64,000 bases of DNA, from contig CAUJDN010000109.1 of assembly GCA_963169195.1 (NCBI GenBank), forward strand, positions 5,695 to 69,694. The letters are read 5' to 3'. Below the pieces are notes generated by a model. It did not search any database and was not told the DNA's origin. It worked only from the letters and a program-made list of their open reading frames with translations. The position numbers were made by a program, and so were the translations under genes. Source of the stretch: Acidobacteriota bacterium (GTDB lineage: Bacteria; Acidobacteriota; Vicinamibacteria; Vicinamibacterales; UBA2999). This document shows, one piece after another, positions 4,673 to 31,084 of this stretch; position 1 is the first letter of the stretch, and each line of letters begins with the position of its first letter.

Positions 4673-5640
4673 TCCGCTGGGGGCTGCTGGGCACGGCCCG
4701 CATCAACCGGCGCCTCGTGCCCGCGATGCGGGCGGCCGGACGATCGACCGTGGTCGCGGTTGCCAGCCGCGAGTTGTCGCGCGCCGACAGCGTCGCTCGC
4801 GCGTGGGGAATCCCGTGCGCCGTCGGCAGCTACCAGGCCCTGCTGGATCGCGACGATGTCACGGCCGTCTACGTCCCTCTCCCGAACGGCCTGCACGTGG
4901 ACTGGACGCTGAACGCCATCCACGCCGGCAAGCACGTGCTGTGCGAGAAGCCGATCGCCCTGGATCCGGCCGACGTGGATCGCATCGCCGTGGCGGCGGC
5001 GCGCGCGGGCGTGGTCGTCGAGGAAGGGTTCATGTACCGGCACGAGCCGCTCACCGCGCGGGTGCTGGATCTGGTCTCCGGCGGCGCGGTCGGCGCCGTC
5101 CGGACCATCGTGTCGGGATTCACGTACGCACAGGGCCGACCAGACGACGTGCGGCTGGATGCGGCGCTCGGCGGCGGCGCACTCTTCGATGTCGGCTGCT
5201 ACCCGATCAGCTACGCGTGCCTCCTGGCCGACCAGGATCCGGCCGCGGCCCTGGGCATCGCGCGGCTCACGCCGGGCGGCGTGGACGAGGAGTTCACCGG
5301 CGTGCTGGGCTATCCAGGCGGCGTGACCGCCTCCATCTACGCGGGTTTCCGCGCGGCGTACCACACGTGGCTCGAGATACTGGGCTCCGAGGGCGTCCTG
5401 ACGGTCGCCAACCCGTTCAGACCCGGCCCCCTCGAGCGGCTCCGGCTCGAGCGGCTCGGGGACACGAGCCGCATCGAGGTGCGCGGATCGGAGACCCTCT
5501 TCACGCGCGAGATCGAGCACTTCGCCGCGTCGGTGCTGGATGGCGCGCCGACGACGATCACGCTCGCCGAGAGCCGCCGCACCGTCGCGGCATCGGCCGC
5601 CCTGCACGCGGCCGCGCGTGCCGGGGGGGAACGGGCATGA
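4669..5640 (+). CDS. Gfo/Idh/MocA family oxidoreductase (start codon uncertain)
   Basis: IRWGLLGTARINRRLVPAM is the Rossmann N-terminus, and EKP(I) is present in HVLCEKPIAL. There is no ATG/GTG/TTG near the homologous N-terminus. The nearest candidates are CTG 4669 and ATC 4672, which overlap the upstream TGA. Confidence 0.8.
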   Translation: MIRWGLLGTARINRRLVPAMRAAGRSTVVAVASRELSRADSVARAWGIPCAVGSYQALLDRDDVTAVYVPLPNGLHVDWTLNAIHAGKHVLCEKPIALDPADVDRIAVAAARAGVVVEEGFMYRHEPLTARVLDLVSGGAVGAVRTIVSGFTYAQGRPDDVRLDAALGGGALFDVGCYPISYACLLADQDPAAALGIARLTPGGVDEEFTGVLGYPGGVTASIYAGFRAAYHTWLEILGSEGVLTVANPFRPGPLERLRLERLGDTSRIEVRGSETLFTREIEHFAASVLDGAPTTITLAESRRTVAASAALHAAARAGGERA

Positions 5641-6032: not shown

Positions 6033-7280
6033 ATGCTCCACATCGAGAACCGCCGTCGCACCGTGCCCGTGAAGGTCGGCGGCGTCACCGTCGGCGGCGG
6101 CGCGCCCATCGTGGTGCAGTCCATGACGATGACCGACACGGCGGATGCGGCGGCGACGGCGCGGCAGTGCGTGGAGCTGTGGGAAGCCGGCTCCGAGATG
6201 GTCCGCGTGACCGTGAACCTGCCGGAGGCGGCTGCCGCGGTGCCGGAAATCAAGCGGCGGATGCTCGACGTCGGCTGCACGGCGCCGCTCATCGGCGACT
6301 TCCATTACAACGGCCACCTGCTGCTCACGCGGTTTCCCGAGTGCGCCCGCGCGCTGGACAAGTACCGGATCAACCCGGGGAACGTCGGCACCGGGAAGCG
6401 CCGCGACGAGCAGTTCTCCACCATCTGCCAGGTGGCGCGCGATCACGGCAAACCGGTCCGCATCGGCGTCAACGGCGGCTCCCTCGACCAGGAGCTGGTG
6501 ATGGCGAAGATGCAGGAGAACACCGACCGCGGCCTCGGGCGCGAGTCGGACGACATCGTCAACGAGTGCATGGTGCTGTCGGCCGTGCAGTCCACCGAGC
6601 TCGCCCTCGAGTCCGGGCTGACCGGGAACCAGATCATCGTCTCCTGCAAGGTGTCGCGCCCGCGCCACCTGATCGACGTGTACCGCGCGCTGGCGAAACA
6701 GACGCGGCAGCCGCTGCACCTGGGCCTCACCGAGGCGGGCATGGGCACGAAGGGCCTGGTGTGGTCGGCCGCGGCCATCGGCATTCTCCTGAACGAGGGC
6801 ATCGGCGACACCATCCGCGTGTCGCTCACGCCGCGGCCCGGAGGCGACCGGCGCGAGGAGGTGTACGCGGCCTGCGAGATCCTGCAGGCGCTCGGCCTGC
6901 GCTCCTTCGCGCCGAGCGTCACGGCCTGCCCGGGGTGCGGCCGCACGACCAGCACCACGTTCCAGGAGCTGGCCGAGGCGGTGCAGGGATACATCCGTGC
7001 GCAGATGCCCGCGTGGAGCCAGCGCTACGAGGGCGTGGAGCGCCTCACGCTGGCCGTGATGGGTTGCGTCGTCAATGGCCCCGGCGAGTCGAAGGCCGCC
7101 AACATCGGCATCTCGCTCCCGGGGACCGGCGAGGCACCGAACTGCCCGGTGTTCATCGACGGCCAGCACGTCACGACGCTGCGCGGCACCTATGAAGAGC
7201 TGGCGGCGGCGTTCGAGAAGCTGGTGGACGAGTACGTCGAGACGCACTACGCAAGGAAGGAACAGGTTTTGGGGTTCTGA
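6033..7280 (+). CDS. ispG: 4-hydroxy-3-methylbut-2-en-1-yl diphosphate synthase (flavodoxin), MEP pathway
   Basis: Full-length match by eye to IspG/GcpE: [31 protein letters not shown], and C-terminal CPGCGRT...[10 protein letters not shown] cluster ligands. Confidence 0.95.
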
Positions 7281-7326
7281 GGTTCTGGGGTTCTGGGGTT
7301 CTGAAGTTCTGGGGTTCTCGGGTTCG
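7271..7326 (+). repeat. tandem octamer array, GGGGTTCT-type, 7 units
   Basis: ggggttct gaggttct ggggttct ggggttct gaagttct ggggttct cgggttcg. The ispG stop codon (7278-7280) lies inside the first unit boundary. Confidence 0.9.
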
Positions 7327-8048: not shown

Positions 8049-9644
8049 GTGAGCAGTCGACTGTTGCTGGGGGTCGTGGCCGTCATGCTGACGGTGGTCG
8101 GGTGGACGGCGGTTCGGGCCGGGCAGGCGCCGCCGGAGGCGTTCGATATCCTCATCCGCGGCGCGCGGGTGCTGGATGGCACGGGGAATCCCTGGTATCG
8201 CGCCGATGTCGGTGTCCGCGGTAATCGGATCGCTGCCGTCGGGTCGCTGGACCAGGCGGAAGCGGCGACCATCGTCGATGCGAAGGACCGCTACGTCACG
8301 CCCGGATTCATCGACGTCCACTCGCACGCAGGCCCGGGCCTGCTCACCGGGCCGCTCAGGCACGGCCAGCCCGTGCTGGCACAGGGCATCACGACGGTCT
8401 TCGTCAACCCTGACGGCGGCGGTCCCGTGGACCTCCGGACACAGCGCGCCGCCTACGAGAAGCAGGGCATCGGCCCGAACGTCGGGCTGTTCGTGCCCCA
8501 CGGCTCCATCCGCCAGCAGGTGATGGGCATGTCGGACCGGGATCCGGACGCCTCCGAGGTGGCGAAGATGGCCGAACTCGCGCGGCAGGGCATGCTGGCT
8601 GGCGCGCTGGGCCTGTCGAGCGGGCTCTACTACGCCCCCGGCAGCTACTCGAAGACGGCGGAGGTCGTGGCCATCGCGAAGGCCACCGCGCCCTTCGGCG
8701 GGGTCTACTCCAGCCACATCCGCGACGAGGCGGACTACACCGTCGGCGTGGTGGCCGCCGTGGACGAGGTGATCGCGGTGGCCGAGCAGGCCGGCGTCAT
8801 CGGTGTGGTCTCGCACATGAAGGCGCTGGGGCCCGGCAGCTGGGGGCTCTCGAAGACGCTGGTGGAACACATCGAGGCGGCCCGTGCCCGGGGTGTGCAG
8901 GTGTTCGCGGATCATTACGCGTACGAGGCCAGCGGCACCGGCATCGTCGGGGCGCTGATGCCGCGGTCCGCGCAGGTGGGCGGACGCGACGCGATGATGA
9001 AGCGCATCCGCGGCGAGCTGCGCGAGGAGATCCGCGAGGCCGTGAAGACGAACATCGCCCGGCGCGGCGGCGCCGACACGCTGATGGTGAGCCGCTATGC
9101 GGCGGACCCGTCCTTCGAGGGCCAGCGCCTGTCGGAGCTGGCCGCGAGAGCCGGGGTCCCGCCGGACGAGTACGCGCTGCAGATGCTGGAGAAGGGCGAT
9201 GCCAGCCTCGTCTCCTTCAACATGTCCGAGGACGACATCGAGCACATCATGCGGCAGCCGTGGACGATGACGTGCACCGACGGGGACCTGGTGCCCATGG
9301 GCCAGGGCAAGCCGCACCCGCGGGCGTATGGCGCGTTCCCGCGCAAGCTGAAGCGCTACGTCCGCGAGCGCGGCGCCATCGGCCTGGCCGACGCCATTCG
9401 CACGATGACGTCGCTACCCGCCACCGTATTCGGCCTGAAGGACCGCGGGCAGATCCGCGCGGGCGCCTACGCGGACCTGTTGATCTTCGACCTCGACCAG
9501 GTGAACGACGCGGCCACCTTCCAGGATCCGCATCAGCTCGCGGAGGGGATGACGGACATTCTCGTCAACGGCCGGTGGACGCGCCGTGACGGGCAGTTCA
9601 CCGCGACGCTGGCGGGGCGCGTCCTGGTCCCCGAGCGGCGCTAG
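8049..9644 (+). CDS. N-acyl-D-amino-acid deacylase (D-aminoacylase) family amidohydrolase, membrane-anchored or secreted
   Basis: GTG at 8049 inside ORF 7653..9644. N-terminal hydrophobic segment SSRLLLGVVAVMLTVVGWTAV is followed by FDILIRGARVLDGTGNPWYRADVGVRGNRIAAVG...PGFIDVHSH. The C-terminal DLLIFD...V.DRATF motif is typical of the family. Confidence 0.85.
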   Translation: MSSRLLLGVVAVMLTVVGWTAVRAGQAPPEAFDILIRGARVLDGTGNPWYRADVGVRGNRIAAVGSLDQAEAATIVDAKDRYVTPGFIDVHSHAGPGLLTGPLRHGQPVLAQGITTVFVNPDGGGPVDLRTQRAAYEKQGIGPNVGLFVPHGSIRQQVMGMSDRDPDASEVAKMAELARQGMLAGALGLSSGLYYAPGSYSKTAEVVAIAKATAPFGGVYSSHIRDEADYTVGVVAAVDEVIAVAEQAGVIGVVSHMKALGPGSWGLSKTLVEHIEAARARGVQVFADHYAYEASGTGIVGALMPRSAQVGGRDAMMKRIRGELREEIREAVKTNIARRGGADTLMVSRYAADPSFEGQRLSELAARAGVPPDEYALQMLEKGDASLVSFNMSEDDIEHIMRQPWTMTCTDGDLVPMGQGKPHPRAYGAFPRKLKRYVRERGAIGLADAIRTMTSLPATVFGLKDRGQIRAGAYADLLIFDLDQVNDAATFQDPHQLAEGMTDILVNGRWTRRDGQFTATLAGRVLVPERR

Positions 9645-10072
9645 CCGCGCTTTCCCTCGATCACGATCACCGGGTCCTCGAGTCTGGTCTCTTCCGCGCC
9701 ATCGACGAGCCACACGTCGTACTTGTAGGACGCGTTCTCGACGCCCGTGGGCACGAGCGCGCCAATCAGGCGCTTGCCGGGCGCCTTGTCGTCCCTGGGG
9801 CGCTGCTCCGTGAAGGGGCTGCGCTCGCGGTCGAACCGCAGCTCGATGTGCGCGCCGTCAGGCAGCACCGTATTCTCCTGGACGTCCCAGCGCATGAACA
9901 TGAGCCGCTTGAGGCGTGCCTCCTGTGGCGTCGTCTCGCTCGCCCATCGACCTCCCTGCTGGAAGACGCGGATCGTGGCGCGCTTCGACTCGCGGAACAG
10001 CGCCCTGGCGACGAGAATCCCGCCCCCGAGGCCGAGCAGAAGGGCAACAGTCGCAGTCATCTCGATGCTCAT
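9641..10072 (-). CDS. hypothetical membrane-anchored protein (143 aa)
   Basis: ATGA overlap with the kinase stop. One N-terminal TM helix (TATVALLLGLGGGILVA). Its stop shares the palindrome CTAG (9641-9644) with the convergent D-aminoacylase stop. Confidence 0.65.
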   Translation of the reverse strand: MSIEMTATVALLLGLGGGILVARALFRESKRATIRVFQQGGRWASETTPQEARLKRLMFMRWDVQENTVLPDGAHIELRFDRERSPFTEQRPRDDKAPGKRLIGALVPTGVENASYKYDVWLVDGAEETRLEDPVIVIEGKRG

Positions 10073-12642
10073 GGAGGATCTCCTTTGCGTTGGTCCGACG
10101 CGAGCAGTGCAGCGAACTCCGGCAGGCGGCGCAGCGATTCGAGATCCTCCTCCGCCGCGACGATGGACGGGCTGTACCCACCGTCAACGGCCGCCCTCAA
10201 CGCGGCCAGGGCATCTGCGGCCCGTCCCGCCAGCGCGTGCACGACCGCACTGGCGAAGTGGACGTGGATGTTCTCCGGCGCCATGGCCCCTGCGCGATCG
10301 ACGCGCGCCCGGGCCGCCTCGGCGTCGCCGGACTTGGCGAGCAGCACCCCCAACGAGGCCAGACGCTCGGCGTCCGTCGGGTTGACCTTCAGCTCGGCCT
10401 CGGCCAGCGCCACCGCTGTCTCATAGGCCGCACGCGCTTCGCGCCGCCGCCCGAGCCGCCGGTAGGCATCGCCCAGATTGCGATGGAAGTCGGGTTCGTT
10501 CGGGCGAAGCTCCACCGCTCGCGTGTACGCCTCGGCGGCACGCGCGTAGTCGCCCCGCTGGTAGTGGATCGTCCCGATATTGCTGACGGCGCCCGCCGAG
10601 GGCCGGATGGCGATCGATCGCTCGTAGCTGGCGAGCGCTCGATCGTTGTCGCCCAGCGTCTGGTAGACGGCCCCGAGCTGCTGGTACCCATAGTGGTTGT
10701 CGGGCTGCAGCCTGGTCAACTCCTCGAAGGCCTTCGCGGCCTCCAGGTAGCGCCCGCCGTTGAAGTGGGCCAGGCCAAGGTCGTTGTAGTGGCCCCAGTA
10801 ACCCGGGCGCAGGTCGATGGCGCGCTCGAACTCCACCACCGCCTCGTCGAGACGGCCTTCCTGCGCGAGCACCTGCCCGAGCTGCCGCCTCGCCTCGTCG
10901 AAGTTCGGCCACAGGACCAGGGCATGCCGCAACTCCTCGGCCGCCTCCGCCAGCCGCCCGCCGCCCGCGAGCACGACCGCGAGCGTGTAGCGGACCTCGG
11001 GCCGATCGGGCGCGAGCCGGAGCGCTGTCGTGCTGCTGTCATGGGCGCGGGTCATCCACTGCGAATCCCGCGTCTCGGCGTACTGCCGCCAGCAGGTCTC
11101 GGCCAGTGCCGCGTGCGCGAGCCCGAAGCGGGAATCGATGCGGACGGCCTCCGAGAAGGCGGCCACGGCCTTGTCGAGGTTGCCCTGTACGTCACGGCGC
11201 TCGAGCAACGAACGCCCCTGCCAGTAGGCGTCGAGAGCCGCCGGGCTCACCGTGGGCGGCAGGTCGGGTCGCCCCGCGCGCAATCCCGACACGTGCACGC
11301 GGAGTGCCGAGGTCACGGCCTGAGCCAGCCGGGACTGGAGGTCGAAGATCCGGTTCAACGTTCCCGGAAACGACTCGGCCCAGGCGATCGAACGGTCCGG
11401 CCGCACCAGCGTCAGCGAGACGTGGAGGCGATCCCCGGCCTGCTGCACGCTGCCCTCGACGAGGAAGGTCGCGCCGAGGTCCTTGACCAGCGCGCCCATG
11501 TCCCGCGACCGCTCGCGCGCCTCGGCCACCGCCCCCCGTGAGAGCACCGTCACGCCAGGCAGCATCGCGAGGCTGGTGATCAGGCTGTCGGCCACGCCCG
11601 CAGCGATGTAGTCGCGGGAGCGATCGGCACCAAGGCTGCTGAGCGGCAGCACGGCCACGACGGGCGCGGCCACGGGGCCCGGGGCCACGGACGCCGTACG
11701 CTGGCGAAGCCATGCCACCAGACCACCCACGAGCACCAGGAGCAGCAGGGCGGTCACCAGCGCCCGGCGCGTGAGCGGGCGCCGGGGAGCGCGGGCCGTG
11801 GCGTGCGTGGTCGTCGGCCGCGGCCGCAGCGCCCTCGCCACGTCGCGTGCCGCCCCCGGCCGCTGGCGCGGATCGCGCGCGAGCAGCAACCTCACGAGCT
11901 CGTCGAGGTCTCCCGGGACCGCCGGCACGACGCTTCGGAGCCGCGGCGCGTCCTCGGACAGCATGACCTGCGCCAGGGCCAGGGCGTCGTGGCCGGGGAA
12001 GGGTCGCCGGCCCGCCAGCATCTCGAACAGCATGACGCCCAGCGCGAAGAGATCCGCGCGCGCGTCCACGTGCCCCGAGACCCACTGCTCGGGCGCCGCG
12101 TAGCCGGGCGTGCCGACGATGTCGCCGACGCTCGTGCCGCCACCCGCCACCGTGGCAGCCGAGTCGGACGGCAGCGTGCGGGCGACCCCGAAGTCGAGGA
12201 TCTTGACGCGGCCCTCAGGCGTGAGGATGACATTGGCCGGCTTCAAGTCGCGATGGACGACGCCGTGGCGATGGGCGGCGTCGAGCGCATCGGCCAGCTG
12301 GACGGCGATGTCCGTGGCTTCGGGCACGGGCACGGCCCCGCGCTTCAGTCGCTCCAGGAGCGTTTCGCCTTCCACGAACTCGAACACGAGCACCACGTGC
12401 CCGTCATGATCCAGCACGTCGTGGACGGCCGCGATCCCGGGGTGCGTGAGGCTGGCCGCCGCACGCGCCTCGCGCATGAGTCGATCGCGGCCGCGCGTGT
12501 CCTGATCATCCGAGGCGCGAACCGTCTTGAGCGCGACGGGGCGGCCCAGGCGCGTGTCGTCGGCGAGCCACACTTCACCCATGCCGCCGACGCCCAGCGG
12601 CCGCACGACCCGATACGGACCAAGGGACGTCCCGGGGATCAC
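10069..12642 (-). CDS. Ser/Thr protein kinase with TM segment, periplasmic domain and C-terminal TPR repeats
   Basis: GVGGMGEVWLA, VALK, HRDLKPANV, DFG and GTPGYAAPE kinase subdomains are present. A TM helix (ALVTALLLLVLVGGLVAWL) follows. At least 8 TPR-like repeats (AYxxLGxxYxxxGxxxxA) follow that. Confidence 0.95.
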   Translation of the reverse strand: MIPGTSLGPYRVVRPLGVGGMGEVWLADDTRLGRPVALKTVRASDDQDTRGRDRLMREARAAASLTHPGIAAVHDVLDHDGHVVLVFEFVEGETLLERLKRGAVPVPEATDIAVQLADALDAAHRHGVVHRDLKPANVILTPEGRVKILDFGVARTLPSDSAATVAGGGTSVGDIVGTPGYAAPEQWVSGHVDARADLFALGVMLFEMLAGRRPFPGHDALALAQVMLSEDAPRLRSVVPAVPGDLDELVRLLLARDPRQRPGAARDVARALRPRPTTTHATARAPRRPLTRRALVTALLLLVLVGGLVAWLRQRTASVAPGPVAAPVVAVLPLSSLGADRSRDYIAAGVADSLITSLAMLPGVTVLSRGAVAEARERSRDMGALVKDLGATFLVEGSVQQAGDRLHVSLTLVRPDRSIAWAESFPGTLNRIFDLQSRLAQAVTSALRVHVSGLRAGRPDLPPTVSPAALDAYWQGRSLLERRDVQGNLDKAVAAFSEAVRIDSRFGLAHAALAETCWRQYAETRDSQWMTRAHDSSTTALRLAPDRPEVRYTLAVVLAGGGRLAEAAEELRHALVLWPNFDEARRQLGQVLAQEGRLDEAVVEFERAIDLRPGYWGHYNDLGLAHFNGGRYLEAAKAFEELTRLQPDNHYGYQQLGAVYQTLGDNDRALASYERSIAIRPSAGAVSNIGTIHYQRGDYARAAEAYTRAVELRPNEPDFHRNLGDAYRRLGRRREARAAYETAVALAEAELKVNPTDAERLASLGVLLAKSGDAEAARARVDRAGAMAPENIHVHFASAVVHALAGRAADALAALRAAVDGGYSPSIVAAEEDLESLRRLPEFAALLASDQRKGDPP

Positions 12643-12685
12643 GATGCTCCCGCGCCGCCGCGGGCCGAGAATACCACGCGGCCGA

Positions 12686-13942
12686 TCAGTCGTCGTGCGT
12701 GATCAGACGGACGCTGCGCTGGTACGTCACATAGGACACGGCCCACTGCAGCATCACCGACGCGCGGTTGCGGAAACCGATGAGGAAGGCAATGTGGAGG
12801 AAGACCCAGAACAGCCACCCGAGGTAGCCCGACAGCCGCAGGACGCCGAAGTCCGCGATGGCCGCGTTCCGCCCGATGGTCGCCAGGTTCCCGGGATCGA
12901 TGTACCGGAAGGGCCGCGTGGGCTCGCCCGACAGGTGTCGCAGCGCGTTGCGGGCGGCGTGCCGGCCCAGCTGCTTGGCCGCTTGCGCCACCCCTGGCAG
13001 CGGCTTGCCCGTCTGGTGGGTGAACGATGCGAGGTCGCCCGCGATGAACACGTCGGGATGCCCTGGGACCGACAGGTCCGGCTCGACCACGACGCGGCCC
13101 GCACGGTCCAGCTCGGTGCCAACCCACCGGCCAAGCGGCGAGGCCTGCACCCCGGCCGCCCACAGGACCGTCCCGGCGTCGATGCGCTCGCCGCCGAGCT
13201 GCACCCCTTCATCGTCGATGGCCGTGACGGGTGTCCCCTCGCGCACCTGGACGCCGAGGCGTGTGAGGGATCGCCGCGCCGACGCGCGCAGTGACGCCGG
13301 AAACGTCGTCAGGATCGACGGCCCCCCCTCGAGCAGCAGGATGCGGGCCGACGCCGGGTCGACGTTGTCGAACTCGGAACGGAGCACCTGCCGGGCAATC
13401 TCGGCCAGCGCACCCGCCAGCTCCACGCCCGTCGGACCGCCGCCGACGATGGCGAAAGTGAGCAGGCGGCGCTGGCGTGCCGCATCGGATTCGCGCTCGG
13501 CCTTCTCGAACGCCAGCAGCACGCGCTTCCGGATCTCGAGCGCATCGTCGAGCGTCTTCAGGCCGGGCGCGCGCGGAGGCCAGTCGGCGTGGCCGAAGTA
13601 CGAGTGCGTCACCCCGGTCGCGACGATGAGCGCGTCGTAGGCCAGAGTGTCTCCTCCGTCGAGGTGCAGGCACTGCGTGCCGGGATCGATCCGCTCGACC
13701 GTGGCGAGCAGCACACGGAGGTTCGCCTGGCGCCGGAGGATCCAGCGGATGGGCGACGCGATGTCGCCGGGCGAGAGCCCTGCGGTGGCGACCTGGTAGA
13801 GCAGGGGCTGGAACACGTGATGGTTGTGCCGATCCACCAGTGTGACGCGGACGGGCCTGCGCGCCAGCACGCGGGCGGCATCGAGCCCCGCGAACCCGCC
13901 GCCGATGATGACGATGTGAGGGACGTGGGGACCGTCGGTCAT
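12686..13942 (-). CDS. ndh: type II NADH:quinone oxidoreductase (NDH-2) family, FAD-dependent
   Basis: PHIVIIGGGFAGLDAA and a second GxGxxG (FAIVGGGPTGVELAG) are present, with a C-terminal membrane-associated helix. Start MTDGPH at 13942 overlaps (ATGA) the upstream permease stop. Confidence 0.85.
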   Translation of the reverse strand: MTDGPHVPHIVIIGGGFAGLDAARVLARRPVRVTLVDRHNHHVFQPLLYQVATAGLSPGDIASPIRWILRRQANLRVLLATVERIDPGTQCLHLDGGDTLAYDALIVATGVTHSYFGHADWPPRAPGLKTLDDALEIRKRVLLAFEKAERESDAARQRRLLTFAIVGGGPTGVELAGALAEIARQVLRSEFDNVDPASARILLLEGGPSILTTFPASLRASARRSLTRLGVQVREGTPVTAIDDEGVQLGGERIDAGTVLWAAGVQASPLGRWVGTELDRAGRVVVEPDLSVPGHPDVFIAGDLASFTHQTGKPLPGVAQAAKQLGRHAARNALRHLSGEPTRPFRYIDPGNLATIGRNAAIADFGVLRLSGYLGWLFWVFLHIAFLIGFRNRASVMLQWAVSYVTYQRSVRLITHDD

Positions 13943-17758: not shown

Positions 17759-17862
17759 TGGGTTCTGGGGTTCTGGGGTTCTGAGGTTCTGGGGTTCTGG
17801 GGTTCTGGGGTTCTCGGGTTCTGGGGTTCTGAGGTTCTCGGCTTCTCCGGTTCTCGGGTTCT
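17759..17862 (+). repeat. tandem octamer array, GGGGTTCT-type, 13 units
   Basis: Starts 4 nt after stop 17755. Units are ggggttct/gaggttct/cgggttct with 3' decay (cggcttct ccggttct cgggttct). Confidence 0.95.
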
Positions 17863-17863
17863 G

Positions 17864-20012: not shown

Positions 20013-20216
20013 CTATTCGCCGCTCGGCAGCTTGCCGCGGCCTCCGCGCGAGACCTGACCGCCCTTGCGGCCGGCTTCGCGGGCTTCCTGGGCAGACCAC
20101 TCGTGCGCCGTGCCTTTGGCGTGAGCCGCGCGACCACCCTTGCTGGCGATTTCGCGCTGCTTCTCCGGGGACATCGAGGCAAAGCCTCGGCGGGCCTTAC
20201 GAATGACTTCGAGCAC
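20013..20216 (-). CDS. KGG-repeat general stress protein (YciG-like)
   Basis: RGFASMSPEKQREIASKGG...EAGRKGG. GTG 20216 lies 8 nt after a perfect AGGAGG. The ORF track start at 20285 is probably too long. Confidence 0.8.
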   Translation of the reverse strand: MLEVIRKARRGFASMSPEKQREIASKGGRAAHAKGTAHEWSAQEAREAGRKGGQVSRGGRGKLPSGE

Positions 20217-20383
20217 GGTCAACACCTCCTTGGCCAATCCGTGAAGCGAGATGCTTGCCAGAATCAGCGGGGCCGGCACAACCACAAGTCATTTCTCGAC
20301 AACCACTTGTGCGTATCAGGGAATCTCGGGCCCCAGCGGGACCGTATGAAAACCATACAGCCATTCGGTTGAGGTGGCGGGAT

Positions 20384-20642: not shown

Positions 20643-20972
20643 ATGAGCGTGTGTGGGGGTCCGACGGGCGCGCCGGACGAGGGCGCAGGCAACAAGAGCG
20701 GCCGCAAGGTCTTCTGCGTGAAGTTCCAGAAGGAGATGCCGGGGCTTGACTACGCGCCGTGGCCGGGCGAGCTCGGGCAGCGCATCTACGAGCACGTGTC
20801 CGCCCAGGCCTGGAAGCTCTGGGAGGACCGCCAGAAGATGATCCTCAACGAGTACCGCCTCATGCCGTGGCAGAAGGAGGCCCAGGAGCTGATTCGGACC
20901 CAGCTCGAGGAGTACTTCTTCGGGGAGGGCGCTGCCCTGCCGCCGGGCTACGTGCCGCAGCAGAGCAAGTAG
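20643..20972 (+). CDS. yggX: Fe(2+)-trafficking / oxidative-damage protection protein YggX family
   Basis: KVFCVKFQKEMPGLDYAPWPGELGQRIYEHVSAQAWKLWEDRQKMILNEYRL closely parallels E. coli YggX. GGAGG lies 8 nt upstream of ATG 20643. Confidence 0.85.
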   Translation: MSVCGGPTGAPDEGAGNKSGRKVFCVKFQKEMPGLDYAPWPGELGQRIYEHVSAQAWKLWEDRQKMILNEYRLMPWQKEAQELIRTQLEEYFFGEGAALPPGYVPQQSK

Positions 20973-21013
20973 GGTTCTGGGGTTCGCGGGTTCTGGGGGG
21001 TCGGGGTTCCTCG
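20972..21013 (+). repeat. degenerate GGGGTTCT-type array (about 5 units), followed by a 2x TCTCACGTC motif
   Basis: gggttctg gggttcgc gggttctg gggggtcg gggttcct, then ttctcacgtc-tac-ttctcacgtc. The ATP-grasp C-terminus and stop lie in the second motif. Confidence 0.8.
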
Positions 21014-21035: not shown

Positions 21036-22379
21036 TCACGTCGCACCTCTCTTCTGACTGCTCCTGACGGGCAGGTACGGGTCGATTGAGAAGCGGAGCG
21101 AGGCGTGCGCGGTGCGGAGCGCGTGCTCCACGACTTCGGGCGTGGCGCCGTGCGCGAAGAGGAATCCCAGGTAGCTGCTGCCCTCGGGCAGCGGGACCAG
21201 TCGCTGGTCCGTCTTCGCGGTGATCACGACGTCGTCAATCCCCGGCAGGGCTCTGGCCGCCTCGATGCCCTCGACGCGCCGGAGGATCCCGCCGCGGGGG
21301 ATGGGGATCATCATCACGCCGGAGGCCTCCGGCTCGCGCACCCACCCGTCCGGGGGCTCGCCAAGGGCGTGACGGAGCAGCAGGACCTCGAGCCCCGCGC
21401 GTGCGTCGGGCGGCCCTGCCTCCCGCACGAAGCGCAGGGCCCGGGCGCACAGGCCGCCAATCGGGCGCGCGGCGACCTCCAGTACGTACACGCCGTCGGC
21501 CGCCACGCGGCACTCGGCGTGGATCGGCCCATGGCTGAGGCCAACCGCGCGGGCCGCCGACGCCACCGCCGAGACGATGGCGTGCTGCGTGGAGCGGGCC
21601 TCCCGCGACGGCGTGACATAGAGGGTCTCCTCGAAGTACGGACCCTCGAGCGGATCGGGTTTGTCGAAGATCGCCAGCACGTGGAGGGCACCTCGATTGA
21701 GCACGCCCTCGAGCGCGTACTCGACGCCGTCGATGTAGCTCTCCACCTGCACGACACCGGGTTCGACACCGTCCGATGCGCGGACCCCCGGCGAGTCGAG
21801 GAGCTGCCGGATGCGGTGCACCGCCGCCGCGAACGACGACGGGTCGTCCGCGCGGATGACACCGCGGGATCCGGAGAGCGTCGTTGGCTTCACGACGACC
21901 GGGAAGCGAAGGGCGCCGGCGAGGGCGGCCGCGTCACTGCCGGCCTCGAGCACGGTGACAGCAGGCACCGGCAGGCCCGCGTCCCGCAGGCGCGCCCGCA
22001 TGCGGCGCTTGTCGCGCGCGATCTCGGCGCCGTCCGGCTCGTGGCCGGGCAGACCGAGGTGCCGCGCGACCAACGCGGCCAGCACGGCCGGCCCGTCGCC
22101 AACGGCGAGCACACCGTCCACGGGCAGGGCCAGGAGGGCTCGCTGGATGGTCCGGAGCGAGGCCTCCGGTTCGGCGAACCGCACCGCAAGGGCGCCATCG
22201 CGCCAGGGGTCATCCAGGTGACCGCACCGGTCCGTGGCGTACACGATCTCGACCCCGGCCCCTGCGGCGGCGTCCTCGAACATGCGCGTCTGGTAGCCGG
22301 TCGTCGTGGCCAGGAGCAGCACGCGCCGCGGCCGCGGCATGGGCGCCGGCGTGCCGGTCATCGCCGCCATGGGTGGCAT
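21036..22379 (-). CDS. ATP-grasp domain protein (carboxylate-amine/thiol ligase superfamily)
   Basis: DKRRMRARLRDAGLPVP...FPVVVKPTTLSGSRGVIRA...VESYIDGVEYALEG...GPIHAECRV..DGVYVLEVAARPIGG is the typical ATP-grasp core. It starts 10 nt after the extended radical SAM stop. Confidence 0.85.
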   Translation of the reverse strand: MPPMAAMTGTPAPMPRPRRVLLLATTTGYQTRMFEDAAAGAGVEIVYATDRCGHLDDPWRDGALAVRFAEPEASLRTIQRALLALPVDGVLAVGDGPAVLAALVARHLGLPGHEPDGAEIARDKRRMRARLRDAGLPVPAVTVLEAGSDAAALAGALRFPVVVKPTTLSGSRGVIRADDPSSFAAAVHRIRQLLDSPGVRASDGVEPGVVQVESYIDGVEYALEGVLNRGALHVLAIFDKPDPLEGPYFEETLYVTPSREARSTQHAIVSAVASAARAVGLSHGPIHAECRVAADGVYVLEVAARPIGGLCARALRFVREAGPPDARAGLEVLLLRHALGEPPDGWVREPEASGVMMIPIPRGGILRRVEGIEAARALPGIDDVVITAKTDQRLVPLPEGSSYLGFLFAHGATPEVVEHALRTAHASLRFSIDPYLPVRSSQKRGAT

Positions 22380-22389
22380 CGACGAGGCG

Positions 22390-23835
22390 TCACAGCAGAG
22401 CCACCTGCTCTGCGGTGGGCTCCGCTCAACAGTACCAGGGCTCGTTCAGGTACGGGATCGTCGCCCGCGACGGCAACGCGCGGAGTCGGCGCGCGGCCAC
22501 CCGCTCGCCGCCTCGCCGGTCGTCGCCCCCGGCGGCCGCATCGGCGAGAGCCCGGATCGCGTCGAAGGTCTCCTGCCGCGGGCGATTGATCTGCACGCCC
22601 ACGAGCTGCATCACGGCCCTCTGCAGCGCATCCACGCGCGCATCGGGATGCCGCCAGGGATGCGTGAGCGTGCGCGGGTCGACGTGCGACACCACGGCGC
22701 GGACATCGGACAGCTCGAGCAGGGGCGACCGGAGCGTCACGAGCAGGCGGATGGCCCACTGGACGGGCGACACATGCGCGACCAGACCCAGGTCTTCGAC
22801 CGCGTCCAGCAGCGCGCGGTAGCCGGGGAGGGTCGTCCACGGCGTGAACGCCACGAACGTCGGGGCGAGGGTCAGCGGGGTAGTGCGGCACAGCCGCACC
22901 GCCTCCTCGAAGTCTGCGCGTGTGTGCCCCTTCCGCAGCAGCCGCAACACGTCGTCGTCGATCGATTCCACGGCGCTGGTGACGAACAGGCACCCGTGAG
23001 CGGCGAGCACCGGCAGCAGCTCGCGATGCTTCAGCAGGTGCTCGATCTTGATGGTGGCATCGAAGGTCAGCGCCGGCCACTCGGCATGTAGGGCCTCGAC
23101 GATGCGGCGTGCGTGCGCGGGACCGTTCAGGAAATCTGGGTCGGCAAACGTGACGTGCTCCACGCCTGCGGCCACCTGGGCGCGGATGTCGGCCAGGACG
23201 ACGTCCACGGGGACGACCCGGACCTGCCCCCGGTACACCGGTACGATGGGACAGTGCCGGCACCAGTGCTTGCAGCCTCTGGTGGCGTCAGTTGATCCCG
23301 CGACGCGGCGCGTGCCGTCCGGGAGCTGCAGAGTGGCATACGAGGCCGGCGCGGGCAGGCCCCGGCGGTCGGGCTGGATGAACGGCAGGCGCGGCAGTGT
23401 CATGTGGCCTGCGGGCGACCGCGGCCGGGCGGCCTCCGGTGCCACGGGCGCCGCATCGGAGGGGTGTCCAGGGGCCGCGAGCTGCTGCGCCACCGCCAGG
23501 AGGTCCGCCTCGAACTCGGGGCCGAGGACGTGAGTCACGCCGTGCGATCTCAGCAGATCCTCGTTCAGCGGCGCGTAGAGGCCGTACGCACAGAGCGTGG
23601 CGCCGGGGTTCAACGCCCTCACGCGATCGAGGGCCGTCAGCGCGAGGCGCGTGGCGGTGTGCATCGGGAGAGAGATAGCCACCATTCGCGCACGCGCCAC
23701 GAGACCGGCATCCAGCGTCTGGCGAGACAGATCCAGGGCCACGGCCTCGAAACCCGCCCGCCGCAGCCACGCCGCCGGCGAGGCCAGCCCGAACGGCTGC
23801 CGGCCGAGGTCGTAGGTAGAGAGCAGCAGCACCAC
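22390..23835 (-). CDS. B12-binding-domain radical SAM protein with C-terminal C-U-A-E-P tail (putative selenoprotein; TGA 22426-22428 read as Sec)
   Basis: N-terminal VVLLLSTYDLGRQPFGLASPAAWL (B12-like domain). The radical SAM motif is CKHWCRHC. The ORF track stops at WYC-TGA, but the same frame continues GCG GAG CCC ACC GCA GAG CAG GTG GCT CTG CTG TGA (AEPTAEQVALL*). An 11-bp hairpin begins right after the TGA. Start GTG 23835 (or 23832). The upstream 447 codons of ORF 22426..25176 are repeat or antisense shadow. Confidence 0.75.
22395..22425 (-). promoter_or_regulatory. putative bacterial SECIS hairpin
   Basis: The RNA reads UGA-GCGGAGCC(C)ACC-GCAGAGCA-GGUGGCUCUGC. It has 11 bp (one G-U) with a single bulged C and an 8-nt apical loop, starting immediately 3' of the UGA. 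Confidence 0.6.
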
Positions 23836-23860
23836 GCGCCCAGCGTAGCACCGCAGTGAA

Positions 23861-23985
23861 CCTGCGTGCCTCGCCCCCCCGTGCTTCGAACCCCCGTGCT
23901 TCGAACCCTCGTGCTTCGAACCCCCGTGCTTCGAACCCCCGTGCATAGCACCTTTCGTGCCTCGAACCTTCGTGTCTATACTCTC
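23861..23985. repeat. 15-bp tandem array (CCCCCGTGCTTCGAA-type), about 8 units, in a divergent promoter region
   Basis: cctgcgtgcctcgcc cccccgtgcttcgaa x2 ccctcgtgcttcgaa cccccgtgcttcgaa cccccgtgcatagca, then decayed units. Same family as 29510..29644. Confidence 0.9.
23977..23982 (+). promoter_or_regulatory. -10-like box TATACT, 18 nt before the ATG at 24001
   Basis: TATACT lies inside the decayed end of the 15-mer array. Confidence 0.3.
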
Positions 23986-24000
23986 CCGGGGGTTTCGACC

Positions 24001-25285
24001 ATGTGGAGCCGACGTTCGTTTCTTCGCCTCACCGGCGGCGCGGCAGGTGCCGGGTTCGCCGCCACGCGCTATGGCCTCGAAGACGTGGCCGCGCTCACCC
24101 AGTCCGTGGCCGGCCGCACGCCCGCGCAGGTGGCCGCGGACGAGGACTACTGGCGTGAAATCCAGTTCGCGTTCACGCTCGATCGCACCTTGATCAACCT
24201 GAACAACGGCAACCAGTGCCCCAGCCCCACCGTGGTGCACGAGGCCTGCAAACGCTACATGGACTGGTCGAACCAGGCGCCGGTCTACCACCGGGGCATG
24301 ATCGACAGGAACATCGAGACCGCGCGGCGGCGCCTCGCGGCCGAGTTCGGCGCCGACCCCGAGGAGATTGCCATCACCCGCAACGCCAGCGAGTCGCTGC
24401 AGATCGCGCAGATGGGCCTCGATCTCGAGCCGGGTGACGAAATCGTCACGACCGAGCAGGACTACGGGCGCATGCTCACGACGTGGGACCAGCGCGTGCG
24501 GCGCGACAAGGTGGCGCTCAAGCGCATCGACTTCCCGGTGCCGACCACCCAGCAGGACCTGATGGAGCGGCTCACCAGCGCCGTGTCGCCGCGGACGAAA
24601 GTGCTGCACTTCTGCCACATCACGAACCAGTCGGGCCAGCTCTTCCCGGTCCGCGAGCTGAGCCTCTGGGCCCGTTCCCGCGGCATCATCACCATCGTGG
24701 ACGGCGCACACGCCATGGGCCACTTCCCGTACAAGCTGCGCGACCTCGAGATGGACTACTACGGCGTCAGCCTTCACAAGTGGCTGCTGGCTCCCCTCGG
24801 CACGGGCCTGCTCTACGTGCGGCGCGACCGCATCGCCTCCACGTGGCCGCTGCAAGCCGCGCCGCAGCGCAGGGAGAACGACATCCGCAAGTTCGAGGAG
24901 ATCGGCACGCACCCGCCGGGCCCGCGGGCGGCCATCAACGAGGCCGTGGCGTTCCAGCAGGCGATCGGCATCGAACGCAAGGCTGCGCGACTGCGCTACC
25001 TGACGCTGCGCTGGGCCAACGAGCTGAAGAAGGAGCCGCGCGTCCGCCTGCACTCCAGCCTGGACGAGGGGCAGACCTGGGGGCTCGCCGTCGTCTCCAT
25101 CGATGGCATCGACACCAGCAAGCTCGTCCCCTACCTGTGGGACCGGCACCGCATCGTCATCACCGCCGTCGGGCACGAGAACGAGAAGGAGCCGGCCCTC
25201 TCGTACCGCGGCCTGCGCGTGACGCCGAACATCTACACCCCGCTCGAGGAGATCGACTACTTCGTCGAGGCCATCCGCGGCGTCA

Positions 25286-25308
<23 letters not shown>
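24001..25308 (+). CDS. class V aminotransferase-fold PLP enzyme (cysteine desulfurase / isopenicillin-N-epimerase-like) with Tat signal
   Basis: MWSRRSFLRLTGGAAGAG is a twin-arginine motif. The PLP-lysine motif is SLHKW. The ORF track start 23866 is a translation of the repeat array. Confidence 0.85.
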
Positions 25309-26794
<1,486 letters not shown>

Positions 26795-29050: not shown

Positions 29051-29509
29051 TTACGGCCCCGTCGGGCTGGCCCCGTGCGGGGCCGTCAGCCTGACGGCGA
29101 GACGTCGGGCCAGGTCTGCGTCGCCGAGGGGATCGAACGGACGGGCCTCCGTCCAGTCGTGCAGCCAGACGGGCTGCCGGCGGCGCTCCGGCGGTTCCCA
29201 GGCGTAGCGCGGGATGATGTGGGCGTGCAGCGCCGCCTCGACGTTGCCCAGAATCTCGTAGTTCACGCGCTCGGCGGCTGTTTCTGCGAGGATGGCGTCG
29301 CCGACGCGGCCCATGTCGGCCAGGAACGTCCGCCGCGCGTCGCCCACCAGCCCATTGAGGTCGGTCACGACAGGGTCCGGATACAAGAGGCAGTAGCCCG
29401 GCAGAATCTGCGGGTCCCCCAGAACCACCCACCCGGATCCCACGCGGGTCACCACGCGCGCAAGCTCGCCTCGCCGCGCCTGCTCCACGAACCGATGGAT
29501 CGCCGTCAC
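29051..29509 (-). CDS. HIT-like family protein
   Basis: The C-terminal half contains NVEAALHAHIIPRY, resembling a degenerate HIT motif. GTG start at 29509. Confidence 0.55.
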   Translation of the reverse strand: MTAIHRFVEQARRGELARVVTRVGSGWVVLGDPQILPGYCLLYPDPVVTDLNGLVGDARRTFLADMGRVGDAILAETAAERVNYEILGNVEAALHAHIIPRYAWEPPERRRQPVWLHDWTEARPFDPLGDADLARRLAVRLTAPHGASPTGP

Positions 29510-29644
29510 CCCCGTGCCTCGAACCTCCGTGCCTCGAACCTCCGTGCCTCGAACCTCCGTGCTTCGAACCTCCGTGCTTCGAACCTCCGTGCTTCGAACC
29601 TCCGTGCTTCGAACCTCCGTGCTTCGAACCTCCGTGCTTCGAAC
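29510..29644. repeat. 15-bp tandem array CCTCCGTGC(C/T)TCGAA, 9 units; fills the entire intergenic gap
   Basis: cccccgtgcctcgaa, cctccgtgcctcgaa x2, cctccgtgcttcgaa x6. On the transcribed (minus) strand each unit reads UUCGAAGCACGGAGG. Confidence 0.95.
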
Positions 29645-31084
29645 CTACTTGCGATAGTCCAGCGCGGGTTTCCGATCGGCAAGCCTGGTCGAGTACTTGA
29701 ATCCCGGCCCGCGCCGCTGGTCGAACTCCGCGCGCGCCTTCTGGATGTGTGCCGGGTCGGAGAAGAGGTCGATGGCCGTGAGCGCCATGCTCTTGGCCGC
29801 CACGAGCATGCCCTTGACGCCAATCGAGGTGCCGCCGGCGGCCACGGCCTGCCAGCTGTGGGCGGGCGTTCCCGGCACCCAGGTGGCCGAGGTGAGCTGT
29901 ACGGTCGGCACGTTCCAGCTGACATCCCCGAGATCGGTGGACGCGCTGCCGATGCCGGGCTCCGGCGTGAACACCGAATTGGCGCTGTCGATGGGCGGCA
30001 GGTTGCCGTCGAGCGACACCCGGAGGATCTCGGCGAACTGGCGCTCGGCCGGCGTGTACTCGTAGCCGCCGACCGCCTGCAGGTTCTTCTGCATCAGCCC
30101 CACCAGATAGGAGTTGGGCAGGACGTTCCAGACGGCCCCGGTCAGTTCCAGCTCCATCGTCGTGTCCGTGCCGAGGGCGGCGCCGCGCGCGGCGTTCTGG
30201 ATGCGCTCCCAGATGCCTTCGAGCACGCGCATGTCGTTGTGGCGGGCGTAGTAGTAGGCCTCGGCGAAGTCGGGCACGACGTTCGGCGCGCGGCCACCGT
30301 TCGTGATGACGTAGTGGATGCGCGCGTCGGAGGGCACGTGCTCCCGCATCAGGTTCACCATGGCGTTCATCGCCTCGACGCCGTCGAGGGCCGAGCGCCC
30401 GCGGTCCGGGGCGGACGAGGCGTGGGCGGATTGGCCGCGGAAGCGGAACTTGCCCGTGATATTCGCCAGCGTGCTCGACGCGCTCGACGCGTTCCGGTCC
30501 CCGGGGTGCATCGTGACGACGACGTCCACGTCGCTGAAGAGCCCCGCGCGCAGCATGTAGACCTTGCCGGCGCCGCCTTCCTCGGCGGGCGTCCCGAAGA
30601 AGCGCAGCGTGCCGGGCCGCTTCGCCGCCACGAGCCACTCCTTCACCGCGATCGCGGCGGCCGTCGAGGCCGTGCCGAAGAGGTGATGGCCGCATCCGTG
30701 GCCCGCGCCGTCGGGGACGAGCGCGTGCCGCTCGGGCTCGGCCGCCTGCGACAGGCCGGGCAGCGCGTCGAACTCCCCGACGATGCCGATGACGGGCTGG
30801 CCGCTGCCCCACTCGGCGGTGAACGCCGTGGGGATCTCGGCCACGCCGGCCTCGACCGTGAAGCCGGCGGTGCGCAGCTGCTCCTGCAGCAGCGCGCTGC
30901 TCTTCTCCTCCTGGTAGCCGACCTCGGCGAACGACCAGATCCGCAGCGCGACGTCGGCGTACGCCTGGCCCCTGCTGTCGATCGACGCGAGGACGGCTTT
31001 CGCGTCCATGCCCTGTCCCTGGAGCGGCGCCGTCACGGCCGCCCACGCCATCAGCGCCCCCGCGAGCCCGTATCTCATGGCCAT
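29645..31084 (-). CDS. M20 family amidohydrolase (AbgB / aminobenzoyl-glutamate utilisation protein B-like), secreted
   Basis: Signal peptide MAMRYGLAGALMAWAAVTAPLQGQG. Motifs EVGYQEEKSS, GEFDALPGLSQ, GHGCGHHLFG. Paralog at 40569..42200. Confidence 0.85.
   Translation of the reverse strand: MAMRYGLAGALMAWAAVTAPLQGQGMDAKAVLASIDSRGQAYADVALRIWSFAEVGYQEEKSSALLQEQLRTAGFTVEAGVAEIPTAFTAEWGSGQPVIGIVGEFDALPGLSQAAEPERHALVPDGAGHGCGHHLFGTASTAAAIAVKEWLVAAKRPGTLRFFGTPAEEGGAGKVYMLRAGLFSDVDVVVTMHPGDRNASSASSTLANITGKFRFRGQSAHASSAPDRGRSALDGVEAMNAMVNLMREHVPSDARIHYVITNGGRAPNVVPDFAEAYYYARHNDMRVLEGIWERIQNAARGAALGTDTTMELELTGAVWNVLPNSYLVGLMQKNLQAVGGYEYTPAERQFAEILRVSLDGNLPPIDSANSVFTPEPGIGSASTDLGDVSWNVPTVQLTSATWVPGTPAHSWQAVAAGGTSIGVKGMLVAAKSMALTAIDLFSDPAHIQKARAEFDQRRGPGFKYSTRLADRKPALDYRK

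Follow-up and report, generated by a model that had tools for sequence, protein, structure and literature searches.

Which reaction sequence is encoded by a radical S-adenosylmethionine (SAM) selenoprotein gene and an ATP-grasp ligase gene that lie side by side, with no recognisable substrate gene, in an acidobacterial genome? The pair stands in a 64,000-nt stretch of DNA of about 70% GC (hereafter the window; NCBI GenBank assembly GCA_963169195.1, contig CAUJDN010000109.1, positions 5,695 to 69,694). A previous annotation of this stretch from its letters alone, the sequence-only reading, had proposed the two genes as an undescribed system, and on re-check its gene coordinates and features of the pair were correct. 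Its expectation that neither protein would fall into a family of known function also held, as the radical SAM protein falls squarely within a family that is catalogued but uncharacterised. That reading did not contain the homology of the radical SAM protein to ArsL, the identity of the ATP-grasp protein as an L-amino-acid ligase (LAL), the YggX-type partner gene or a nearby POT/PTR2 transporter gene. With these added, the pairing, which extends over hundreds of species, points to an undescribed pathway to an unusual amino acid and its dipeptide.

Conservation of the pair was examined in two sets of loci. A scan limited to one genome per species gave matches in at least 592 species, and the best 80 loci, mostly from Acidobacteriota, were analysed; loci of this Acidobacteria type were counted as informative when they offered at least 700 nt of downstream sequence (n = 72). 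A Betaproteobacteria-type clade, in which the protein is a cysteine (Cys) form, was sampled by look-ups and by scanning metagenomes; the cultured Sulfurirhabdus autotrophica belongs to it. Most loci are contigs of metagenomes or metagenome-assembled genomes (MAGs), and some taxonomic labels look wrong. Of the 72 informative Acidobacteria-type loci, 59 have the ligase gene immediately 3' of the radical SAM gene and in the same orientation; in the Betaproteobacteria type it follows in 70 of 76 informative loci. In many loci the gap measures 7–14 nt. Unbiased clustering of neighbours over the 80 loci left only the radical SAM, ligase and YggX genes as broadly shared, and all remaining neighbours differ between the Betaproteobacteria-type and Acidobacteria loci. 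The arrangement itself also varies: a 47%-identical Cys-form homolog (L175) has the order DUF692–ligase–radical SAM, and in a 34%-identical homolog of low GC (L169) the ligase gene is convergent, with overlapping 3' ends. Moreover, loci whose radical SAM protein is closer to that of the window tend to have a closer ligase as well (Spearman 0.77 between the identities, 130 loci). Adjacency of this kind is far beyond chance, and the radical SAM protein and the ligase very probably form one functional unit. The homologs are thus syntenic in other genomes, in tandem, reversed and convergent orders, as the proposal of a system had presupposed. In the window, where the two genes share a strand and the ligase start codon lies 10 nt past the true stop of the radical SAM gene, co-transcription is almost certain, in agreement with the sequence-only reading. 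Three marine lineages (34–38% identity) are represented by contigs shorter than 2 kb, too short to judge linkage. No description of the conserved module of radical SAM protein, LAL and YggX or DUF971 was found in the searchable literature.

The alternation of TGA with Cys codons, a conserved downstream peptide and a covarying hairpin agree with the earlier assignment of the radical SAM protein as a selenoprotein, and on these sequence grounds the in-frame TGA is a selenocysteine (Sec, U) codon. The C-terminus in the window reads …IPYLNEPWYC-U-AEPTAEQVALL. Among 77 Acidobacteria-type loci, 59 have TGA directly after …PWYC and 18 have TGC or TGT, and AEPxxEQ… stays in frame past this codon. The Betaproteobacteria-type loci have TGC or TGT at this position without exception (84/84) and keep the tail AEPTxQQLQSF; the tail is therefore a feature of the protein and not of the RNA alone. 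A hairpin resembling a Sec insertion sequence (SECIS) begins 13 nt 3' of the UGA and ends 16 nt ahead of the ligase start codon. In an alignment of 41 sequences its helix (columns 17-22/28-33) is paired in 89.8% of cases, versus 40–51% with the 3' partners slid, and it contains 32 double-change cells with compensatory changes in three pairs; none of 500 shuffles reached the observed values. The hairpin is weak or absent in short-tail Cys-form loci. It is matched by no Rfam model, and an Rfam search of 20–26 kb of the window returned no SECIS or other RNA match. Database entries end at …EPWYC in 118 of the 120 best matches of the family, and the Joint Genome Institute gene call for the window protein likewise runs only up to the UGA (469 aa). 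Given that only Sec-inserting ribosomes terminate right at the ligase start, translation of the ligase could be coupled to selenium supply through the hairpin and the nearby stop, a speculative arrangement.

The radical SAM protein belongs to NCBIfam NF040546, the CUAEP/CCAEP-tail radical SAM (seleno)proteins, and is not ArsL. It matches NF040546 with 620.5 bits (E 1.8e-186; model positions 1-467 of 468) against a cut-off of 500 bits, and the second-best model is that of ArsL, NF040542, with 265.5 bits over model positions 1-407 of 423, below the cut-off of 450 bits. An N-terminal Rossmann-like domain precedes a Pfam Radical_SAM match, in which the motif C188-K-H-W-C192-R-H-C195 (CxxxCxxC), expected to hold the [4Fe-4S] cluster and SAM, is invariant in our alignments. 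Homologs begin at the same GVVLLLSTYD position as the window protein. At the other end, the C-U/C-A-E-P motif is found in the window, in the 77 and 84 loci and in distant representatives, and it is intact in every full-length representative with a complete C-terminus, down to 34% identity. The family comprises at least 519 clusters at 50% identity (E <= 1e-30). Its kinship to the ArsL family is also seen in a 31% identity over 411 residues to a Bacillus cereus protein with an RCCLKC tail (E 2e-74). Haft lists NF040546 as uncharacterised and remarks that CU motifs otherwise occur in heavy-metal-handling proteins such as HgcA, MerT and MerB-like proteins; in the literature searched, this remark alone names the family, and nothing was found on a link to the ligase.

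Structural comparison was based on a 49%-identical Cys-form homolog (P0285, from Sulfurirhabdus autotrophica locus L085), whose AlphaFold model has an overall confidence score (pLDDT) of 89.9 and a low-confidence stretch over the last ~17 residues, as would be expected of a mobile arm. A Foldseek search of this model against the structures of the Protein Data Bank (PDB) returned AprD4 (6fd2) as the best match (E 2.5e-19, TM 0.64-0.69), followed by the cobalamin enzymes TsrM, OxsB and MgmA and by MiaB; AprD4 is also the best PDB match of the radical SAM protein by sequence. The term B12-type used in the sequence-only reading is apt for the fold only. The Pfam B12-binding domain scores 21.1 bits against a cut-off of 32.1, and the nearest structure is the cobalamin-free AprD4, so that the label describes a fold and not a demonstrated cofactor. 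For ArsL, the chemistry has been studied experimentally. The purified enzyme is active, cobalamin not being mentioned, and cuts SAM at the C-gamma–S bond to give methylthioadenosine (MTA) and a 3-amino-3-carboxypropyl (ACP) radical, making the C–As bond of hydroxyarsinothricin. Its C-terminal CCxxC motif binds As(III), and loss or mutation of these Cys residues abolishes the product and not SAM cleavage. High activity on a methylarsenate-derived substrate has been reported for a variant named 'MCCA', which we read as keeping two vicinal Cys only; if so, a two-coordinate substrate would need no more than two soft ligands.

The partner protein carries the domains of an amino-acid ligase: ATPgrasp_N (33.6 bits), ATP-grasp_4 (106.8 bits) and LAL_C2 (59.2 bits) are all above their Pfam cut-offs, and no NCBIfam model scores high enough for a call. 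Among solved structures, the closest relative is BL00235 (3vot; E 1.1e-38, residues 49-412), followed by another LAL and then by BacD (1e-9). K164, E289, E301 and R305, which we take to be ATP-binding, Mg-binding or catalytic residues from their alignment, are invariant across the ligase clade and the ATP-grasp proteins of the arsenic islands described below. On the basis of this family membership, the window protein probably joins amino acids. The reported products of BL00235, Met-Gly and Met-Met, imply that the closest solved relative accepts a gamma-substituted 2-aminobutyrate.

A ligase of this kind also accompanies ArsL relatives. Four islands encoding RCCLKC-tail proteins were examined on annotated plasmids from three lineages (Bacillus/Priestia, Alicyclobacillus and Pantoea), and all four contain a small CMD/AhpD-like gene followed by an ATP-grasp gene. 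The island proteins are 25-27% identical to the window ligase; ATP-grasp_4 is found in all four, and LAL_C2 is above its cut-off in Bacillus, just below it in Alicyclobacillus and absent in Pantoea. Neighbouring genes are arsR, arsM and genes for an aquaporin, a CobW-type GTPase, a major facilitator superfamily (MFS) protein and ArsN, and in Pantoea and Alicyclobacillus the ATP-grasp gene forms one block with the MFS gene, arsM and the radical SAM gene. The arsinothricin literature that we examined mentions neither a ligase nor the island ATP-grasp gene, and arsQML has been reported to suffice for arsinothricin in Burkholderia. Since LAL-like genes occur both in these islands and beside the CUAEP-tail radical SAM gene, the LAL-type partner appears as a recurring add-on of both sister families. 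This points to an ACP-derived amino acid shared by the two families and to a shared follow-up ligation step on it, and arsinothricin-containing dipeptides may exist.

From these relationships we infer a two-step scheme, conjectural as to both product and step order. By homology to ArsL, the radical SAM selenoprotein would reductively cut the C-gamma–S bond of SAM, releasing MTA and the ACP radical, a chemistry to which we assign nearly an even chance. Its flexible tail, E-x-W-Y/F-Cys-Sec-A-E-P, would serve as substrate holder and clamp a soft heteroatom between thiolate and selenolate, candidate substrates being two-coordinate metalloid or chalcogen species, for example an As, Sb, Se, Te or S compound. 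Attack of the radical on the held atom would yield a 2-aminobutyrate substituted at the gamma position and analogous to methionine or glutamate, and the ligase, to judge from its family and its synteny, would use ATP to join this product to a second amino acid, giving a dipeptide. YggX, together with DUF971 in Betaproteobacteria, would keep the oxygen-sensitive [4Fe-4S] cluster working in hosts that are mostly aerobic, and in Vicinamibacterales the POT transporter may carry the dipeptide. Taken from the ACP radical and the atom held on Cys-Sec through to the dipeptide, the full scheme is a serious candidate that we hold slightly short of even. Because the distribution is wide and vertical-looking and arsenic and mercury genes are missing, something common, for instance a Se or S species, is favoured over a rare toxic metalloid. 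The further proposal, that the pair stands at the centre of a widespread and as yet undescribed pathway making an organo-element amino acid, with a C–Se, C–S, C–Te or C–metalloid bond, and its dipeptide, is tentative, and we consider it rather doubtful.

Several observations weigh against this scheme. No sequence feature that we examined tells which C–S bond of SAM is cut in the CUAEP-tail family, the ArsL model score of 265.5 bits is well under its cut-off of 450, and the window tail offers two soft ligands where ArsL binds arsenite with three Cys. At the loci inspected, the surroundings of the pair show no conserved gene for resistance to arsenic, mercury or another metal(loid), for an ArsM-like methyltransferase or for a dedicated exporter, so nothing independent speaks for any particular element. 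A housekeeping role would explain the broad, vertical-looking conservation in Acidobacteria and Betaproteobacteria more readily than a speciality for toxic metalloids, and the preference of BL00235 for Met is weak evidence at a similarity of ~137 bits. The radical SAM gene also occurs without an adjacent ligase gene in several Bryobacteraceae and Terriglobia loci and in L176, and no LAL homolog was found on the Thermomicrobium roseum megaplasmid, which carries the radical SAM gene. The main competing explanation retains a single pathway and replaces the ACP radical by canonical 5'-deoxyadenosyl (5'-dA) chemistry on a free amino acid or on a dipeptide made by the ligase: C–S or C–Se bond formation, rearrangement or methylation, with the Cys-Sec tail acting as a redox or hydrogen-atom-donating swinging arm. 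The gene linkage fits this equally well, and the fold neighbours AprD4, OxsB, MgmA and MiaB, all of 5'-dA or cobalamin type, the sub-threshold ArsL score, the lack of conserved metal(loid) genes and the precedent of a vicinal Cys-Sec on the flexible C-terminus of thioredoxin reductase all speak for it. Against it, ArsL is the only characterised homolog that shares the core and a vicinal-Cys tail, and ArsL binds the substrate atom and converts SAM to MTA; an LAL-type partner is found in ArsL-family islands as well. We consider canonical chemistry possible, yet on the unlikely side.

Modification of a macromolecule is less probable still. Here an ACP group would be placed on a residue or nucleoside and the ATP-grasp enzyme would ligate onto it, in the manner of diphthamide synthesis or RimK, which would suit the wide, core-gene-like distribution, the co-variation of the two proteins and the lack of an attached exporter or resistance gene, with Dph2 as a precedent for transfer of an ACP radical to protein. 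The ligase, however, has LAL_C2 and is closest to ligases of free amino acids, not to RimK or graspetide ligases; no conserved target gene is linked, and a POT peptide transporter gene is linked in one order. All of this makes the macromolecular explanation improbable in our judgement. The sequence-only reading had pointed out that radical SAM and ATP-grasp pairs are typical of peptide or small-molecule maturation, and maturation of a ribosomally synthesised and post-translationally modified peptide (RiPP) whose precursor is encoded elsewhere would follow that pattern; in L175, a DUF692 enzyme of the MbnB/TglH/ChrH family even stands ahead of the ligase and radical SAM genes. However, DUF692 is present in this one locus only, the ligase is of LAL type, and no protease, leader-recognition (RRE) domain or exporter accompanies the pair. 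A precursor peptide attached to the pair was sought and rejected: no small open reading frame (ORF) family is conserved beside it in 176 related loci, and the gaps flanking the window ligase gene (10 nt on the radical SAM side, 63 nt on the YggX side) are too short. The absence of a precursor-like ORF and of a protease gene had been noted before and stands; the POT/PTR2 gene, a same-lineage partner of the pair, had been overlooked. We regard RiPP-like maturation as very improbable. Even less credible is inherited synteny of two separate processes without functional coupling. Conservation of CofD, LigD_N, PTR2 and molybdopterin oxidoreductase genes within Vicinamibacterales and lineages with the radical SAM gene and without the ligase gene could be cited in its favour, but the pair persists while all other neighbours change between Acidobacteria and Betaproteobacteria, in tandem, reversed and convergent arrangements and often at the gap of 7–14 nt. 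Of the explanations considered, ACP-radical synthesis of an amino acid followed by ligation to a dipeptide is the one that we favour.

Features of the window and of the comparison loci (coordinates in nt within the window or within the named locus)
Feature	Coordinates	Strand or orientation	Remarks
YggX-type Fe(2+)-trafficking / oxidative-damage protection gene	20643..20972	plus	convergent with ligase gene; NF003817, Pfam Iron_traffic
L-amino-acid-ligase-type ATP-grasp gene	21036..22379	minus	447 aa; Pfam and 3vot match
SECIS-like hairpin	22395..22413	minus	stem GCAGAGC/GCTCTGC, loop AGGTG; inside coding tail
Sec codon UGA (U of Cys-Sec dyad)	22426..22428	minus	Sec/Cys alternation across loci
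Radical SAM selenoprotein gene	22390..23835	minus	481 codons, single in-frame TGA at 22426-22428
Class V PLP (Aminotran_5) gene	24001..25308	divergent from radical SAM gene	predicted twin-arginine start MWSRRSFLRLTGG
POT/PTR2 di-/tripeptide transporter gene	25286..26794	minus	Pfam PTR2/MFS_1; PLP gene inserted between transporter gene and pair
KGG-repeat stress protein gene (PF10685)	20013-20285	minus	equivalent positions in 17 loci
Tandem arrays beside the pair	20972-21009; 23858-23968
Same arrays elsewhere in the window	7265-7325; 17760-17863; 29508-29646; 52022-52117
ArsL-family island, L178 (B. cereus pAH820_272)	1133-2661
ArsL-family island, L179 (Priestia)	3172-4700
ArsL-family island, L180 (Alicyclobacillus pAACI01)	3112-4662
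ArsL-family island, L181 (Pantoea pBH6cv2_C)	8280-9771
DUF169 (PF02596) loci			L064, L067, L068, L102, L103, L107, L109, L120, L138, L155, L161, L175
DUF169 and corrinoid-ferredoxin cluster, L064 (Terriglobia MAG)	11169-13903
DUF692–ligase–radical SAM cluster, L175	4991-9419
Frameshifted ligase gene, L076	11542-12638
Glutathione S-transferase gene, L085/L086 (Sulfurirhabdus)	10736-11401

Among the neighbouring genes, YggX is the most widely shared. The window protein scores 119 bits against NF003817 (cut-off 74) and 117 bits against Pfam Iron_traffic, and a YggX gene lies within 3.5 kb of the pair in 57 of 80 Acidobacteria-type loci, in convergent, tandem or upstream position. It is nearby in 31 of 84 Betaproteobacteria-type loci, mostly as the first gene of a YggX–DUF971–radical SAM–ligase operon; 68 of 77 loci of that type have a DUF971/GBBH-like_N gene 5' of the radical SAM gene. 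In the fitness data of Price et al., DUF971 is co-fit with YggX, Mrp and BolA and is assigned to Fe–S cluster maintenance, a role with which a study in P. putida agrees. The flanking of the pair by YggX or DUF971 in different arrangements and in two phyla fits protection or repair of the radical SAM cluster in aerobic hosts. The POT/PTR2 transporter gene adjoins the radical SAM gene in 26 of 80 loci, in both orientations, and L084 has it upstream at a distance of 14 nt, on the strand of the radical SAM gene; it is possibly a lineage-specific accessory gene, and its position could reflect order-level synteny only.

The class V pyridoxal phosphate (PLP) gene is separated from the radical SAM gene by a 165-nt spacer full of repeats. 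The sequence-only reading had placed its Tat-exported product on the flank of the pair. The enzyme is not part of the system: a full-length ortholog was found only in L001, the closest relative of the window organism, and L076 gave a weak, partial match of 28%. In these two organisms alone, that of the window and L001, does the PLP gene stand between the POT and radical SAM genes. The best NCBIfam matches of the protein, far below threshold, are the periplasmic pyoverdine-tailoring enzyme PvdN and SufS. A role as selenium or sulfur donor for the pair was ruled out on the same phylogenetic ground, and the Tat-exported enzyme is a lineage-specific neighbour.

A DUF169 gene recurs near the radical SAM gene in 12 loci from three clades, straight after it in L064, L067 and L068 and between it and the ligase gene in L155 and L161. 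In L064, DUF169 is the first of three genes 3' of the radical SAM gene, a UbiE-like methyltransferase gene and a corrinoid–ferredoxin fusion gene being the next two, and no ligase gene comes after them; the fusion unites a CdhD-like corrinoid domain with a 2x[4Fe-4S] ferredoxin and resembles HgcA/HgcB. The legend of a preprint figure places MerR, UbiE and DUF169 genes beside hgcAB-like genes of Nitrospina. The DUF169 and HgcAB-like context is circumstantial backing for a metal(loid) or organometallic theme. The cluster in L175 consists of genes for a 289-aa protein, DUF692, the ligase and the radical SAM protein, with DUF169 and signal peptidase genes nearby. DUF692, whose family acts on cysteine-containing peptides, was considered as a partner and dismissed, being confined to this locus. 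In Sulfurirhabdus autotrophica, the last 4 nt of the ligase gene are shared with a glutathione S-transferase gene; this gene was likewise set aside, since it occurs in Sulfurirhabdus only and in none of the 82 other betaproteobacterial-type loci. The KGG-repeat gene, together with a 78-aa ORF, lies between the YggX and molybdopterin oxidoreductase genes and is conserved within Vicinamibacterales only.

The tandem arrays on both sides of the pair had been taken as its boundaries. They consist of an 8-mer (GGGTTCTG) and a 15-mer (CGTGCTTCGAACCCC/ACCTCCGTGCTTCGA) in both orientations, and the same arrays recur in many intergenic spacers of the window, which makes them a general intergenic feature of the genome; a function as boundary or regulatory elements of the pair was accordingly ruled out. 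They also give rise to long spurious ORFs and to false N-terminal extensions, an example being the NCBI model of the radical SAM protein, which begins MHGGSKHGG… within an array. Scans of 20.5-24.5 kb for sigma-70 promoters and intrinsic terminators returned none and are uninformative at 70% GC in an acidobacterial genome. A tRNA-Ala gene is the sole tRNA gene in the window.

Several loci carry questionable labels or sequences. L084 (GCA_019752015.1) is labelled Cyanobacteria and has the gene order CofD, LigD_N, PTR2, radical SAM, ligase, YggX, KGG, molybdopterin oxidoreductase, which is typical of Vicinamibacterales; L001 and L027, labelled Bifidobacteriaceae, share much of this synteny. These labels therefore look mis-binned or mislabelled. 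The Enterobacteriaceae label of L049 is doubtful owing to a betaproteobacterial-type DUF971 gene upstream of its radical SAM gene. In L076, a long-read betaproteobacterial MAG, the ligase gene is frameshifted, through either an assembly error or pseudogene formation.

To our knowledge, no canonical-fold radical SAM enzyme other than ArsL releases an ACP radical, and ArsL has been treated as a rarity. The CUAEP-tail family is a much larger sister of the ArsL family, found in hundreds of soil and freshwater species; in it a Cys-Sec clamp takes the place of the arsenite-binding Cys triad, and the ligase and the Fe–S maintenance partners have been kept across phyla. What appears to be new, judged by family membership and gene order, is the combination of ArsL-type amino-acid synthesis with LAL-type dipeptide formation, the radical SAM family and the LAL class being catalogued already. 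If the proposed scheme is true, noncanonical ACP-radical chemistry would belong to a large enzyme family and would not be a curiosity of arsinothricin producers, and carbon–heteroatom bond formation by ACP radicals would gain a new substrate. Abundant soil Acidobacteria and freshwater Betaproteobacteria would then harbour a new family of modified amino acids and dipeptides, and a catalogued orphan selenoprotein family would acquire a function. Arsinothricin-type dipeptides may also exist, given the overlooked ATP-grasp step to which the ArsL-family islands point. Because the operon of the cultured Sulfurirhabdus autotrophica is of the Cys form, the question can be tested directly without expressing a selenoprotein.

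Among known systems, ArsL is the closest to the window protein. Both share a two-domain core, with a Rossmann-like N-terminal domain and a radical SAM barrel bearing CxxxCxxC, and a short C-terminal tail in which two chalcogen residues are vicinal, and LAL-type ATP-grasp genes also stand in the islands of the ArsL family. The tails differ, however: that of ArsL, R-C-C-L-K-C, contains three Cys, whereas E-x-W-Y/F-C-U/C-A-E-P offers two soft ligands, often with Sec, and the window tail (C-U-A-E-P) has no third Cys and lacks the RCCLKC/CCxxC motif. Genomic contexts differ as well. ArsL sits in ars islands with arsR, arsM, arsQ, aquaporin, ACR3 and ArsN genes, whereas no ars genes were found within 10 kb of the window pair or in the loci inspected, and the CUAEP-tail context features YggX and DUF971 instead; the ArsL family is also far less widespread. 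AprD4 shares the cobalamin-free Rossmann-like N-terminal domain, but it is a radical SAM diol dehydratase that applies 5'-dA chemistry to an aminoglycoside, is only 17-19% identical and lacks a C-terminal Cys/Sec tail. Apart from ArsL, we know of no enzyme other than Dph2 that generates an ACP radical from SAM. Dph2, of diphthamide synthesis, likewise precedes an ATP-dependent amide-forming step later in its pathway; it is not homologous, has neither the radical SAM fold nor CxxxCxxC, and acts on a protein histidine. The Gly-Cys-Sec-Gly arm of mammalian thioredoxin reductase, a member of an unrelated protein family, resembles the tail in presenting a vicinal Cys-Sec on a flexible C-terminus and has Cys-containing orthologs in other lineages, a likeness that motivates the redox-arm alternative. 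The ligase shares the ATPgrasp_N, ATP-grasp_4 and LAL_C2 architecture with the LALs BL00235, BacD/YwfE, RizA and TabS and the active-site motifs …H-A-E…E-V-A-A-R-P-I-G-G with BL00235. Several LALs couple a non-proteinogenic 'warhead' amino acid to a carrier amino acid, as in bacilysin, rhizocticin and tabtoxin. The window ligase differs from these characterised enzymes in belonging to a separate clade, one that travels with the CUAEP-tail radical SAM gene.

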